DNA of 8,253 bases from a virus (Duplodnaviria > Heunggongvirae > Uroviricota > Caudoviricetes). Shown here piece by piece: positions 1,156 through 6,136 of this stretch. The stretch is from IMG/VR virus record IMGVR_UViG_3300011952_000012. The stretch is one strand, 5' to 3'. The notes under the pieces are model-generated. The model worked only from the letters and a program-made list of their open reading frames with translations. It ran no database searches and had not been told where the DNA came from. The position numbers and the translations under genes were made by a program. The first letter of the stretch is position 1, and each line of letters starts with the position of its first letter.

Positions 1156-1310
1156 NNNNNNNNNNNNNNNNNNNNNNNNNNNNNNNNNNNNNNNNNNNNN
1201 NNNNNNNNNNNNNNNNNNNNNNNNNNNNNNNNNNNNNNNNNNNNNNNNNNNNNNNNNNNNNNNNNNNNNNNNNNNNNNNNNNNNNNNNNNNNNNNNNNNN
1301 NNNNNNNNNN
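1156..1310. other. Run of 155 N (unresolved or masked sequence); hides the terminase large subunit C-terminus and the gpW N-terminus
   Basis: Directly visible as n characters in the sequence. Confidence 0.98.
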
Positions 1311-3207
1311 GAGCGTCTCGAGATTGAGCTGGAAACGAATTTTACTGATACGCAGCGCTGCCAGCCCGTATACCCAGCAGTCGAGCGCCTCATTTCGCCG
1401 CCCCTGGTTGTCCCAGCGGTAAACGACGCGACCGTTAATGAGTTTCGGGATCAGAACTTCAGAGACGAGCTGTTTTGCCTCTGTTGTGCCGAATATTTCG
1501 TCGTCGTTTGGAAAATGAATTGCACCCGGTGTCGCTGATTTTGGGTCTGGTTCCAGTGGCAGGGGCATCGCGAGCAAATCTTTTGCTGTGTCAGTACCGA
1601 TTAACGACAAATAAACTTTATTCGCGTTACGTGTACGCGGCATATTTACGACTGGCTGGCCGTATGAGCTTGCGCCTTTAATTGGAATGACCCACAGCGG
1701 ACCGAGTTTCAGCGAGCGGTTATAAACAACCTGCGCATCTATACCGCCGGTATCCCACGCCCAGCGGCTGACGCCGATTGTGGTCCCGTCGCTGCGCCGG
1801 TATTGTTTGCGAATCACTCCGTCGACACGCTGCAGCGTGTCCTCTTCGTCGTAGCGACCGAGGACGATTGTTTTATCAATCAGCCAGCACTCTTCCTCAG
1901 CTCCCCAGCCCCACACGTAACACTCGTAGCGCCCGGACGTCTGAGAGTCGATGCCGCCGGTTATATAAACAACACCGTCAGGAACCTGGCTGGCGTATTT
2001 TTCCCGGCGATTAACCAGAATATCGTGCTCCAGCTGCTCGCTGGCCACGTCGCTCCAAAGCTCGCCGAGCGTCGTGTTATGAAACGTTTTTTCTTTGAGT
2101 GGGTCGCCCTTCGCTTTCAGCCACTCGCTGACAATCTCGCCCCATCCATCAAGGTTTAGTGAATACAGGGCGTTTATCACGATCGCCGCGTGTTTCGGCG
2201 CGCGAACGACGCCACTGTCATGATCAAAAAAATGGATTNNNNNNNNNNTCTCGGGTCCAGGTGCAGTCCTCGGCTATCCAGCGCCCCCCGAGCTCCATTT
2301 TTTCGAGATCGCGATAGTAAAAATGCTCCGGGCAGTGGCAGCACTGGTAATACGCGGACGACGATTTCGACTCGTTGGTCTGCAGGCTGTCATCCCACTT
2401 GAGACCGTATTCGATACCGTCGAAACCAAATACCAGGACCTGCTCCTCGCCACAATGCGGACACTTCAGGTAAAAACGAAACGTCAGATCAGCCGCGTCT
2501 TCCAACATTTCTATATGGCTTTTGCCAGTAACGGTCGGCGTCGAACCAAAAATCGCTTTCGGGTATGCTGCGCCCTTAATTCGAACGAGCGCCAGCTCAA
2601 TTGGCGAGCCTTCGCCTTTACCTTTTTTAGCGACCTCCAGCGGCCAGCCGTCGACCTCGTCACCTTCGACAACCTGTTTCGTCAGTCGACGAAAATTCCC
2701 CGGCGTACTCGCGCCGCGAAAATCAATAATTGCGCCGCTCATCTCTTTGCGCTGGAGATTGTTACGCTCGTTGCTTTTATCCCAGTCTGGGAAAATTTTC
2801 TGAATCACCGGCATTTCGGCGATAGCGGGGTCAACCTCGTCGGCGACAAATCCATCCGATTCGTCATCGATAGGCTGATAGACCACGGCACTACGTTTTT
2901 TGTGCTCAGCGAAATAGAGCAGCGCCGCGACGAGTATTTTTGTATAACCGAGACGAGCTGATTTGCGAACAGACACGATTTTTATCGCGTCGTTAGTCAT
3001 CATATTTAACATCACTACCTGGACCGGCTGAGTCGTCCAGTGGCCAGCAATATGGCTTGAGCCTTCGGGAAGATAAAAATGTTTATCAGCCCACTCAACC
3101 CCCGTCATCGGTATCGTCACGCGCAAGGGATTCAACCCTGTCGAGATCGCGTTCGATATCGCTGACATCGTAATCGCTGAAGTCGATTCGTATGTCTGCC
3201 AGTTCAT
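1311..3207 (-). CDS. Terminase large subunit, lambda gpA family (interrupted by a 10-N run at 2239-2248; C-terminus in the 155-N run)
   Basis: ORF-track pieces 2224..3207 and 1095..2180 are two halves of one protein. N-terminal half has VEWADKHFYLPEG, VSVRKSARLGYTKILVAALLYFAEHKKRS, KCPHCGEEQ; C-terminal half has KEKTFHNTTLGELW, YITGGIDSQ, CWLIDKTIVLGRYDEEDTL, WDTGGIDAQVVYNRS, VIPIKGASSYGQPV, YLSLIGTDTAKD, RRNEALDCWVYGLAALRIS, all colinear with lambda gpA as I recall it. Start may be 3207 (ORF track) or the internal ATG at 3168 (MSAISN..., closer to lambda MNISNS...). Confidence 0.92.
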
Positions 3208-3661
3208 TCAGGGCTATTGCCAGCTCCTCTCGTAATACACTGCTCGCCTCCTGCGGCATTTCCGGCCACACCTTTTTTAACCGTGGTGGCCACGATTCGA
3301 CACGGGTACGTAATTCAACTGCGACGCGAGATACAGCTACGCTGATTAATTCAATTGGCGCGTAGCGTTTAGCAAGAATGCGGCGTTTCACGCGAGCCAT
3401 CAGGATTCGCTCCTGCCGTTCCTCATTTTTCAACCACTGCTCGCGATTTTTTTCGGGAGAATTGTCCCCCGCTTCCGGTTCGTCATTACTAGTTGTGTCG
3501 CGTCTATTGCTCCGGAGATAACGAATATAAAAATGGCGCCATGCGTCAAGTTCCCAATCGCCACGTCCTTGGGGGACTGGGGCTCCCGGAAGTTTTGCAA
3601 GATCGCGCAGACGACGATCAGATAGCAGTAAATGTGCTGCGACCTCAGCCTGACTTGCCAT
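3095..3661 (-). CDS. Terminase small subunit (Nu1-like DNA-packaging protein)
   Basis: 188-aa ORF immediately upstream of and overlapping the terminase large subunit. RBS GAGGA about 6 nt before the ATG at 3661. N-terminus (LSDRRLRDLAKLPGAPVPQGRGDWELDAWRHFYIRY) loosely resembles the lambda Nu1 N-terminal region (ASIRTIQNWQEQGMPVLRGGGKGNEVLYDSAAVIKWY); acidic C-terminus. Called mainly on synteny. Confidence 0.65.
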   Translation of the reverse strand: MASQAEVAAHLLLSDRRLRDLAKLPGAPVPQGRGDWELDAWRHFYIRYLRSNRRDTTSNDEPEAGDNSPEKNREQWLKNEERQERILMARVKRRILAKRYAPIELISVAVSRVAVELRTRVESWPPRLKKVWPEMPQEASSVLREELAIALNELADIRIDFSDYDVSDIERDLDRVESLARDDTDDGG

Positions 3662-3724
3662 TAAAAATCCTCACCGGAACCGGAAATACCCAAAATGAAA
3701 AAATACTAAAAACGAGTGAGTTTT

Positions 3725-3775
3725 TGCGCGTCTACCGACCCTCGGTGTTTTGAATTTCGGAAAGGACCCGCGACC
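3725..3775. other. Putative cos region (cosQ-like and cosN-like elements)
   Basis: About 60-100 bp upstream of the Nu1-like start. Minus strand reads CGGGTCCTTTCCG (plus 3758-3770), matching the lambda right-end motif ACGGGTCCTTTCCGG as I recall it, followed about 11 nt later by the hyphenated palindrome ACCGA-GGG-TCGGT (plus 3734-3746), a candidate nicking site. Confidence 0.45.
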
Positions 3776-4032
3776 AGGGGGGCTATATCCCTTTCAGGAC
3801 AGGAATCGGGGGCTCGCATCAGGTTCATCAAACTCGACTGTAGCCTCGCGGCGTACTTGTTTGCATACATCAGCTTTGTGTATCTCATTATCAGCGTAAG
3901 CTTTCACTTTGGCAGCGAGCCATCCTTTTGCGCTGTATCGATAGACTACCGAACAAAGTTTCCCCTATGTGTATATATCTTGAAATTATTGATATTCTTA
4001 CAGAAAAGCAACAACCATGAGCACACAAAAAA

Positions 4033-4262
4033 ATGAACAAAGAAAAAATCGAAGCCTTAATGAGCGTAATATTAAAAGAAGCTGACCCCAAAAAATTTCC
4101 TGAGAAATTATCAGAGGACGCCATCGTATCTTTTTATCGTGCGAACTCCTCTTACCTACATTGTTCAACTTTAAGAGAATGGTTAAGCGGCGAAGCAGAG
4201 CCTTCAGATGAGATACTTGAGGAGATTATGGTTCAGAACAACTGGCGCGCAACTAAATGGTC
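4033..4262 (+). CDS. Hypothetical protein, low-GC moron-like ORF (3' end lost in or near the 10-N run)
   Basis: Only plus-strand ORF with a plausible hydrophilic translation (MNKEKIEALMSVILKEADPKKFPEKLSEDAIVSFYRANSSYLHCSTLREWLSGEAEPSDEILEEIMVQNNWRATKW). Markedly AT-rich compared with flanking phage genes, preceded by an AT-rich region 3890-4030. No clear SD. The ORF-track continuation after the gap is antisense to the lipoprotein signal peptide and is probably not real. Confidence 0.35.
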
Positions 4263-4272
4263 NNNNNNNNNN
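4263..4272. other. Run of 10 N (placeholder gap) between convergent genes
   Basis: Directly visible. Confidence 0.98.
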
Positions 4273-4403
4273 GTAATCTTCGTACCCGGCGCGATCGTCA
4301 CGTGTTTAATGCTGCTGCCGTCAGCGCGAGTCGCTTCGGTGTATGTCGAATGTGTGCAGCCTGCCATCGTGAAGAACGCGACAGCTAAGAGAAGTTTTTT
4401 CAC
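4273..4403 (-). CDS. Putative lipoprotein (N-terminal part; possible spanin or Bor-like outer-membrane lipoprotein), 3' end in or beyond the N-run
   Basis: GTG at 4403-4401 lies 7 nt after the endolysin stop (TAG 4413-4411). Translation V/MKKLLLAVAFFTMAGCTHSTYTEATRADGSSIKHVTIAPGTKIT... has a canonical lipoprotein signal peptide (KK n-region, hydrophobic core, lipobox-like MAG-C). All three minus frames hit stops within about 25 codons below the gap, so the protein is short unless the gap hides more. Confidence 0.55.
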
Positions 4404-4410
4404 GTTTTAC

Positions 4411-4890
4411 CTACGCTTCTGAGATAGATTTCTCAGCATTCACCAATGGAAGTGATTGTGGAACATCCGTTTGACCTGCTGGCCAGCGATAGCCTGTTAC
4501 GCGGGAACGAGGAAAAGCTTTGATATTTACTTCATCTGCCTGGTTGCCCCCCAAAATCATTAAATCCCCGGCGGCATTTTTCCCGACAACAAAACCAACG
4601 TGGCCACCGCCAGACCGAGACAGAATAGCAATGCATCCATAGGCAGGTTCCTTCAGTTCATTACCCCAATCGAGATAAGAATTCGCAGACTCAAAACGCG
4701 TTGAGCGAATACCAACACGTTCCAGCATTGCTCCGGTGAAGGCGGCGCACCATGGTGTTTCGTCATCCTTAATACCGCCGCGTTTGATATCTTTCCAGTA
4801 CTGCACAATTTCTGCAGCATGTTGCTTCCCTTTCATTTCCCGGATGCCGAGATTTTTTCGTGCCTCAATTAGCCATTTAGGATCGGTCAT
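4411..4890 (-). CDS. Putative endolysin: Cys-His peptidase (CHAP / NlpC-P60-like, TIGR02594-like) peptidoglycan hydrolase
   Basis: 159-aa ORF with RBS GGAGA about 6 nt upstream. Candidate catalytic Cys in DETPWCAAFTG and His in GGGHVGFVVG. Sits directly after two small membrane proteins and before a lipoprotein. Start overlaps the upstream stop (TAATG). Confidence 0.6.
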   Translation of the reverse strand: MTDPKWLIEARKNLGIREMKGKQHAAEIVQYWKDIKRGGIKDDETPWCAAFTGAMLERVGIRSTRFESANSYLDWGNELKEPAYGCIAILSRSGGGHVGFVVGKNAAGDLMILGGNQADEVNIKAFPRSRVTGYRWPAGQTDVPQSLPLVNAEKSISEA

Positions 4891-6126: not shown

Positions 6127-6136
6127 NNNNNNNNNN
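6127..6136. other. Run of 10 N (placeholder gap) inside the Q-like region
   Basis: Directly visible. Confidence 0.98.

Follow-up and report, generated by a model that had tools for sequence, protein, structure and literature searches.

The question raised by this locus is whether the noncoding DNA in front of a Nu1-like gene holds the cos site of a lambda-like phage and, if it does, at which bases it would be cut. The window, that is, the whole stretch of 8,253 nucleotides analysed here, had been given a preliminary description in which a motif resembling the lambda right end and a hyphenated palindrome downstream of it were read as such a site. Comparison of the region with lambda, N15 and a series of more closely related phages and prophages indicates that the minus strand from 3769 to about 3674, together with a repeat at 3473-3481, is very probably the cos of a lambdoid E. 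coli prophage, built like that of lambda and provided with a short cosB in the style of N15. The features on which this reading is based are collected in Table 1.

Table 1. Features of the putative cos region and of the terminase genes in the window (bp numbers count from the predicted left end of the packaged DNA; a slash marks a nick or an axis between two bases).
Feature	Positions	Strand	Remarks
13-mer CGGGTCCTTTCCG	3770-3758	minus	same as lambda right end ...ACGGGTCCTTTCCGGTGATCC... (J02459)
cosQ, GGGTCCT	3769-3763	minus	within the 13-mer; presumed packaging-termination signal
cosQ-to-cosN spacer, 22 bp	3762-3741	minus	ends in conserved CACCGAG
Hyphenated palindrome ACCGA-GGG-TCGGT	3746-3734	minus reading	ACCGA 3746-3742, GGG 3741-3739, TCGGT 3738-3734
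Predicted nicks	3741/3740; 3729/3728	minus; plus	from the cohesive-end register
Predicted 12-nt 5' cohesive end GGTCGGTAGACG (cosN core)	3740-3729	minus	from alignment to the record ends of relatives
cosN dyad, GTC (bp 2-4) and GAC (bp 9-11), plus G0/C13	3739-3730	minus	axis between bp 6 and 7 (3735/3734)
A/T-tract-rich spacer from cosN to the R3-like site, bp 13-50	3728-3691	minus	position of the lambda I2 region
R3-like candidate TerS-binding site GGTATTTCCGGTTCCGG, bp 51-67	3690-3674	minus	tandem TTCCGG
terS, 188 aa	3661-3095	minus	divergent Nu1-superfamily member; start at bp 80 from the predicted left end
Inverted copy of the R core TTCCGGTTC, bp 260-268	3473-3481	plus	inside terS; inverted repeat I5
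terL, lambda gpA type	3108-1095	minus	interrupted only by N-runs 2239-2248 and 1156-1310

Prophage context and terminase genes

The window covers 8.25 kb of a lambdoid E. coli prophage; Q, the lysis genes, the putative cos, terS and a terL of the gpA type all lie on its minus strand. The lambdoid late region is found on the minus strand and consists of a Q-like antiterminator, two holins and a CHAP/TIGR02594 endolysin, with a small plus-strand ORF. After this ORF come about 370 bp without any annotated gene, followed by terS, terL, gpW and portal genes. Escherichia phage vB_EcoM-705R4 (ON470624) is 94.6% identical to the window. Of 5,426 complete E. coli genomes, 444 have the cos region, among them strains E24377A, SE11 and GF43, and in every case it is located in the chromosome. 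Four runs of N interrupt the window (1156-1310, 2239-2248, 4263-4272 and 6127-6136). The apparent division of terL into two ORFs is caused by a run of 10 N, and a reading of terL as two separate ORFs was rejected as an artefact of this run. Two ORFs lying over the cos region, one of 60 aa on the minus strand (3706-3888) and another of 106 aa on the plus strand (3716-4036), were also rejected as genes, because RefSeq annotates no CDS at this site and the relatives cannot be aligned left of cosQ.

A profile search assigned TerS to phrog_57 over its full length (E 2e-39), the same PHROG that is matched by lambda Nu1 (1e-76) and N15 gp1 (9e-54). No match to Pfam PF07471 (Phage_Nu1) or to NCBIfam was obtained, and a sequence search of the PDB gave nothing relevant. 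In pairwise comparisons with Nu1 and gp1 the identity was 22%, confined to the C-terminal half of the protein, and all 26 clusters of TerS homologues in a large protein collection were either unnamed or 'hypothetical'. An AF2 model built with 21 sequences had a mean pLDDT of 76, with values of 77-86 over residues 1-50, and presented an N-terminal strand, two helices, wing strands and another helix, followed by a long coiled helix. The top Foldseek matches of this model were MerR-type wHTH domains and the TerS-Rpp complex 6hlk, none with an E-value below 0.46. The modelled N-terminus is consistent with a gpNu1-like DNA-binding domain.

The terL gene begins before terS ends, with its start at 3108 overlapping the terS end at 3095. 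Its product is of the gpA type, as revealed by the Pfam families GpA_ATPase (PF05876, 4.7e-47) and GpA_nuclease (PF20454, 1.1e-62), and it is 97-98% identical to the TerL of 705R4.

cosQ, record ends of relatives and the predicted cohesive end

Read on the minus strand from 3780 to 3659, the region consists of ...CCCCTGGTCG CGGGTCCTTTCCG AAATTCAAAAC ACCGA GGG TCGGT AGACGCGCAAAAACTCACTCGTTTTTAGTATTTTTTCATTTTGGGTATTTCCGGTTCCGGTGAGGATTTTTA ATG. The likeness to the lambda right-end motif that had been noted beforehand proved to be complete identity over the 13-mer CGGGTCCTTTCCG, and the hyphenated palindrome does lie 11 nt downstream of it, after the intervening AAATTCAAAAC. The window has a single copy of the 13-mer; the calculated expectation for an exact 13-mer is about 2.5e-4 copies over the two strands of 8.25 kb, and with two mismatches allowed a mean of 0.14 matches was found in shuffled sequences. 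The composite pattern GGGTCCT-N22-GGNCG had no occurrence in 200 shuffles. The heptamer GGGTCCT in this 13-mer is the lambda cosQ, at lambda 48473-48479.

A block that includes cosQ, GGGTCCTTT, was present in all 17 cos regions tabulated and unchanged in the nine relatives aligned. The cosQ element, whose role has been described, has 7 bp and is highly conserved among lambda-like phages (PMC4669245), and in the window a cosQ of this length stands upstream of the nicking site, 22 bp before the predicted nick. The conservation footprint was drawn from an alignment of nine cos regions from relatives with TerS proteins 36-87% identical to that of the window. Its invariant columns were GGGTCCTTT, the GGG at the nick, C11, CGCA (bp 13-16), CTC, the T-tracts and TTTCCGGTT. 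In eight relatives the identity to the window was 22-38% over the 40 nt left of cosQ and 60-83% from cosQ to the ATG, and this jump indicates that the homology with the relatives begins at cosQ. The earlier statement that the position is right for terminase binding and cutting is in keeping with this boundary and with the gpA-type TerL and Nu1-superfamily TerS encoded directly downstream.

The register of the cohesive end is given by relatives whose database records are open at this point. A distant DNA search returned Aeromonas phage matches that start at record position 1 or stop at the last base. The record of phiARM81ld, a linear-plasmid prophage, begins with GGGCGTTAGACCCGC... and ends with ...GGGTCCT-N23, and its first base aligns to 3740. 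The phages PhAER-1, -2 and -5, which come from fish-farm water and were deposited in either orientation, have the 12-mer GGGCGTTAGACC at both record ends; this 12-mer also opens the phiARM81ld record, and in the nine-relative alignment it lies base for base on 3740-3729. Stray bases are found at the ends of PhAER-2 (AA) and PhAER-5 (TT), and they are absent at the joined prophage junction in A. popoffii. The ends of the PhAER phages and phiARM81ld are known from sequence records alone; considering library chemistry, the 12-bp terminal duplication of the PhAER phages with its ragged, non-genomic bases would correspond to 5' overhangs that were filled in and appear in a raw assembly. The break at the other side is provided by Hafnia phage yong2, whose record ends with ...CACCGAGGGGGCAGCGACA and starts with CGCGGG (junction GCGACA/CGCGGG), so that it is interrupted at the predicted bottom-strand nick. 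No papers on the PhAER phages or yong2 were found.

The Aeromonas phages belong to the same TerS clade as the window, with TerS 47% identical. Over TerL, phiARM81ld has an identity of 62% for the ATPase half and of 48% for the nuclease half. In the noncoding DNA between cosQ and the ATG, the Aeromonas phages share 70-72% of the bases with the window, the R site TTTCCGGTTCCGG is identical, an inverted copy of it is located at bp 252, terS has its start at bp 79, and 9 of the 12 bases of the cohesive end are shared. They differ from the window in the remaining bases of the 12-mer, in the CG flanks and 23-bp cosQ spacing and in their hosts, and their ends are visible in the records, whereas the E. 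coli family of the window has no record that ends at cos.

Headful (pac) packaging, with the resemblance to cosQ being a coincidence, is scarcely probable at all. The ATPase and nuclease domains of gpA, both of which are present in TerL, belong to the 5'-cos packaging class; moreover, each element of the cos is conserved and keeps its register, and related phage records have fixed 12-nt terminal duplications.

A scan with the pattern GACGCGCAAAAANTCNCTC yielded 21 loci in IMG/VR and at least 120 loci in metagenomes, and real cos regions were recognized in 11 metagenome loci among the matches listed. No contig ended at cos: the true IMG/VR hits, and the metagenome hits among the matches listed, were all internal to their contigs, and therefore the scan gave no termini for the E. 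coli family. One contig (L021) ends 4 nt inside cosQ and is uninformative. In two contigs with homologous TerS, P0006 (41 kb) and P0020 (46 kb), the gene is located in the middle of the contig. The HY01 record begins at the terS ATG, and the HY01 paper makes no mention of cos. The cohesive-end 12-mers of the clade were not found in the relevant literature. The distant DNA search returned no Gifsy record, and the Gifsy-1 record is in prophage order.

Two spacings between cosQ and cosN were found. The succession GGGTCCT, 23 bp, 12-nt end and CGC is present in lambda, N15, phiARM81ld and two Photobacterium prophages; the same succession with 22 bp is present in the window, with GGTCGGTAGACG as 12-nt end, and in L019-L023, the E. 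mori prophage (L033), L188, L192, L189 and L193. The 22-bp spacer was found in all enterobacterial members of the TerS clade of the window with a CACCGAG or CCTGCC flank. The alignment to the lambda and N15 cos regions that had been proposed as a check revealed a shared cosQ, these spacings of 22 and 23 bp, and CGC after the 12-nt end.

Since the register was fixed by the relatives, matches of GGTCGGTAGACG to the lambda cohesive end GGGCGGCGACCT could be recognized at 6 of 12 positions, with CGC following in both. The resemblance is concentrated in the left half (5/6 for bp 1-6, and 1/6 for bp 7-12). The preliminary description had reported that base-level identity to lambda cosN was not seen, which is only partly correct, and it had expected a cohesive end different from that of lambda, in agreement with the six positions that differ in the predicted end. 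One of these is bp 3, which is T in the window and G in lambda. In natural lambda-like variants the right half of cosN is variable and the left half and cosQ are kept (PMC4669245). Citrobacter-type relatives (L188 and L192) have GAG/GGGCGGTAGACG/CGC, in which the left half GGGCGG is exactly that of lambda and one base away from that of the window.

A CG flanking the nick positions is reported to be highly conserved (PMC4669245). In the window this holds for the right nick, which is followed by CG as part of CGC, but the left flank is AG (CCGAG/GG), as it is throughout the CACCGAG subgroup. The AG flank reduces the certainty on the exact left nick and not on the site as a whole.

An alternative to be considered is a true lambda-type cos cut one base away from the positions in Table 1, either with the top-strand nick at 3740/3739 and an 11-nt overhang GTCGGTAGACG or with both nicks shifted. 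A one-base shift would retain the 23-bp spacing of lambda between cosQ and the nick. The interval from cosQ to CGC is 34 bp in the window, yong2, SerU, L019-L023, L033, L188 and L189, and 35 bp in lambda, N15, phiARM81ld and the Photobacterium prophages; it is this interval, 1 bp below that of lambda, that makes an 11-nt overhang possible, and the yong2 record sets the right-hand boundary only. However, the GTC/GAC dyad of the window and a perfect palindrome in E. mori are both centred, in the 12-nt register, on the axis between bp 6 and 7, the GAG/GGGCGG... of L188 and L192 aligns with ACG/GGGCGG of lambda, and in the MAFFT alignment the spacer has the 1-bp gap beside cosQ and not at the nick. 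Nicks that are symmetric about the dyad axis are 12 bp apart, which favours an overhang of 12 nt over one of 11 nt, and the shifted cut is considered unlikely. The terminase of this prophage would thus be predicted to cut at the bases given in Table 1, leaving 12 nt and not 11 nt single-stranded.

Symmetry of cosN and the hyphenated palindrome

As in lambda-like phages, the predicted cosN has partial two-fold rotational symmetry. Five of 11 pairs are symmetric in the window (-2:15, 0:13, 2:11, 3:10 and 4:9) and also five of 11 in lambda, pairs 0:13, 2:11 and 3:10 being common to both. Pairs 0:13, 2:11, 3:10 and 4:9 are retained in the window, L019, L023 and L033, with 5:8 as an additional pair in L023. 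A perfect palindrome of 10 bp, GTCTGCAGAC (bp 2-11), lies on the dyad axis of the E. mori prophage (L033), in which 7 of 11 pairs are symmetric.

The hyphenated palindrome ACCGA-GGG-TCGGT, which had been put forward as a cosN-type symmetric nicking site, does not coincide with this element. Its centre, 3740, is at the predicted top-strand nick, 5.5 bp left of the dyad axis, and it takes in bp 1-7 of the predicted end. L023 (TCCCA), E. mori L033 (TCTGC), SerU-LTIIb and yong2 have lost the stem and keep the other cos elements. Perfect 5-3-5 hyphenated palindromes occur 14 times in the window, with about eight expected, which is chance level. The palindrome is probably incidental and not the symmetry element of cosN.

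A function of its own outside packaging, as a hairpin or protein operator, for instance a plus-strand intrinsic terminator, has very little probability. A consensus scan did score TACCGACCCTCGGTG followed by TTTTGAATTT as a weak terminator-like site on the plus strand, but this was one site against a mean of 1.0 in shuffled sequences, no plus-strand gene reads into the palindrome, and neither the chance frequency of 5-3-5 palindromes nor the loss of the stem amid retained cos elements agrees with such a role. Terminator or promoter readings of the cos site were rejected as being at chance level.

Proposed cosB layout and packaging, and relation to known systems

The resemblance to lambda extends beyond cosN. 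Compared ungapped and in register, bp 13-66 are identical to lambda at 28 of 54 positions, which was the best of 21 offsets (22 for the next best) and was reached by only 7 of 20,000 shuffles. The core TTTCCG is located at bp 55-60, in the same register as the lambda R3 site GGCGTTTCCG (bp 51-60), and forms part of TTTCCGGTTCCGG at bp 55-67. Within this site, TTTCCGGTT is invariant in nine relatives with TerS identity as low as 36%. The full R3-like motif occurs once in the window and is the only conserved block of the leader. By sequence register, its position at bp 51-67 compares with about bp 48-64 expected for a lambda-like R site. From this arrangement, TerS would be expected to bind to the TTCCGG repeats. 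The proposal of a lambda-like cos upstream of the Nu1-like gene is supported by the identity of cosQ, by the homology to lambda in register from cosN to R3 and by the record ends of the relatives.

The inverted copy inside terS forms with the R site an inverted repeat (I5) whose 9-nt arms, separated by 195 nt, are 100% complementary, and TTCCGGTT has two occurrences in the window where 0.27 would be expected. Among the 17 cos regions tabulated, nine relatives have an inverted copy at bp 252-282 and L193 has one at bp 112; an exact inverted copy is absent in L189, L191, lambda and N15. The copy sits in a poorly conserved linker of TerS, where the protein alignment shows it to occupy other codons in the Photobacterium relatives. 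In these relatives the direct and the inverted copy both read TTTCCGGTTT, and elsewhere both read TTCCGGTTC, so that the change is matched. The leader is long in L193, with the terS ATG at bp 199, and in L191, with the ATG at bp 152, and both have an inverted copy at about bp 114, like lambda R2.

The simple cosB of N15 has a single R3 at bp 48-59 and a remote inverted rR2 at bp 249-260 inside gene 1 (Feiss et al. 2015, PMC4669245), rR2 being non-essential (PMC4669245). The window is similar to N15 in its short leader, with terS starting at bp 80 (bp 89 in N15 and bp 191 in lambda), in one R site at about bp 50-65 and in an inverted copy about 200 bp distal to it in terS, which is a candidate analogue of rR2. 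It differs from N15 in the cohesive end and the TerS recognition region and in the cosQ-cosN spacing, which is 23 bp in N15, and its R site is unrelated to the N15 sequence GAGGTTGTTGTT and closer to lambda R3. No IHF consensus WATCAANNNNTTR with up to two mismatches was found in 3640-3780 by a scan that recovers I1 and I2 of lambda. An IHF site is likewise absent from the simple N15-type cosB (PMC4669245), with which the lack of this consensus in the window is in agreement.

With lambda the window shares cosQ within 13 identical bases, a predicted nick about 30 bp downstream of the cosQ start, the TTTCCG core of the R3-like site at bp 55-60 and the order of terS and an overlapping gpA-type terL. 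It departs from lambda at half of the predicted cohesive-end positions, bp 3 of the left half among them, in a left flank of AG and not CG and in a spacer of 22 and not 23 bp between cosQ and cosN. The cosB is short and its leader lacks R2, R1 and the IHF consensus, and TerS is too diverged to be matched by Pfam Phage_Nu1.

According to the mechanism proposed for this site, during late lytic growth the Nu1-superfamily TerS would bind the R3-like TTTCCGGTTCCGG at bp 55-67, and possibly also the inverted copy about 200 bp further, inside terS. The bound TerS would position the gpA-type TerL on cosN, where it would nick twice, 12 bp apart and symmetrically about GTC/GAC, generating the 5' cohesive end GGTCGGTAGACG. 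Packaging would proceed from the terS side, toward lower window coordinates, and cosQ would direct the terminating cut at the next cos.

The site might instead be the relic of a cos in a defective prophage, descended from a working one and no longer cut or used, a possibility regarded as decidedly improbable. On the one hand, the only phage record in the E. coli family, that of vB_EcoM-705R4, has 27 kb and does not start at cos, terS is annotated in a shortened form (306 nt, 101 codons) in RefSeq for strain E24377A, and the window shows only part of the prophage. On the other hand, terS and terL are intact save for the N-runs, and the cos elements are invariant across the E. coli copies while the spacers vary: in E. 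coli and metagenome copies, substitutions are found in the cosQ-cosN spacer, at about bp 24-28 and just before the R site, with no changes in cosQ, the 12-mer or TTTCCGGTTCCGG. In addition, the noncoding cos DNA shows more conservation across genera than TerS does, as seen with Aeromonas, and the name vB_EcoM-705R4 implies, as far as a name can do so, that virions were obtained. A cut shifted by one base, a relic, a hairpin and headful packaging are all less likely than a working lambda-type cos.

This cos and the unannotated TerS clade could tentatively be regarded as a further lambda-like packaging specificity, with a TerS that reads TTCCGG tandems set in the R3 register of lambda, mixed cosB layouts and variants in constrained features. 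In such a specificity, the simple layout may be that with terS at bp 80 and the inverted R copy in terS at about bp 260, and the complex one (L191 and L193) may be that with a long leader and the inverted copy at about bp 114. With simple and complex cosB in a single clade, the Monarch/N15 pair would have been repeated independently. The clade may also contain natural variants at cosN bp 3, in the left CG flank and in the cosQ-cosN spacing, which are features reported as constrained.

The cos site itself is an ordinary and expected feature, and the sticky end and the TerS are variants missed by current annotation. The understanding of cos packaging is unchanged, and the departures from lambda are of modest, specialist interest. 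The small set used for reasoning on terminase specificity gains with this site a natural cos variant, and such variants bear on which helper phages package which prophages and satellites. For annotation, the packaging origin and the likely genome ends are provided for a family of prophages carried by about 8% of complete E. coli genomes. In this family cos is unannotated, and public records call TerS 'hypothetical' or truncate it. One related record annotates a CDS across its cos.

Organization of cos in related phages

The segment from cosQ to the nick is common to Hafnia phage yong2 and the window; over 35 nt, CACCGAG included, the two show 83% identity. The TerS protein of yong2, however, belongs to another family (DUF1441), and the two TerL proteins share only 28% identity, which suggests a mosaic joint at cosN.

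Two other relatives, Logan assemblies SRR2005923 (L193, bp 1-204 counted from the left end) and ERR13421017 (L191, whose TerS bears the NCBI name Klebsiella aerogenes), encode TerS proteins with 64-65% identity to that of the window. Their leaders are long, with the terS ATG at bp 199 (L193) and bp 152 (L191), and in both an A/T-rich stretch is followed by an inverted copy of the R site, around bp 114. This is a lambda-like 'complex' cosB; the window type shows the 'simple' layout, a pair that parallels Monarch and N15 (Feiss et al., PMC4669245).

In a more distant marine relative, Microbulbifer sp. (L190, GCA_030731025.1; TerS 51% identity), both GGGTCCT and an R-like site, TTCCGCTTCCGGTT, are kept. 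The interval between them departs from the N22/23 + 12 + CGC pattern, and cosN therefore could not be located in this relative.

In Escherichia phage SerU-LTIIb, an annotated CDS runs straight across GGGTCCT-N22-GGTCTGGGGACG-CGC, a sequence that is clearly cosQ-cosN, and this CDS is probably a mis-annotation. The LT-IIb toxin genes are located directly upstream of this cos. A 16-nt direct repeat (81% identity) was also observed in the window, with one copy inside terS at about bp 235-250 from the predicted left end, and it may be a chance match.

Coordinates of the features described
Feature	Record	Position	Strand
Small terminase (terS)	window	3095-3661	minus
terL, two apparent ORFs	window	2224-3207, 1095-2180	
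Four N runs	window	1156-1310, 2239-2248, 4263-4272, 6127-6136	
Small ORF between lysis cassette and cos	window	4033 to about 4278	plus
16-nt direct repeat	window	3491-3506, 3719-3734	
cos segment	Hafnia phage yong2 (MZ516527; L003, L006)	L003 3005-3045, L006 1-20	
'NU1-like protein' CDS	SerU-LTIIb (KU052038; L004)	2951-3169	

Annotation of the terminase genes

The small terminase matched no family in Pfam or NCBIfam, and its only tie to Nu1 is PHROG 57. All 26 homologue clusters in a large protein collection are unnamed or 'hypothetical protein', and the RefSeq 'terminase small subunit' of E. coli E24377A has only 306 nt (101 codons). This is an annotation gap in a gene that, among complete E. 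coli genomes, occurs in about 8%. The terL gene appears as two ORFs because it is split by N runs; its frame is otherwise unbroken, and the product shows 97-98% identity to TerL of Escherichia phage vB_EcoM-705R4.

A small ORF beside cos

The small plus-strand ORF, lengthened to 4033-4422 in the window by N runs, found no match in Pfam. The annotations of 705R4 and of E. coli E24377A each list it as a 246-nt hypothetical protein. It is oriented against the late operon, and its place is a typical moron position.
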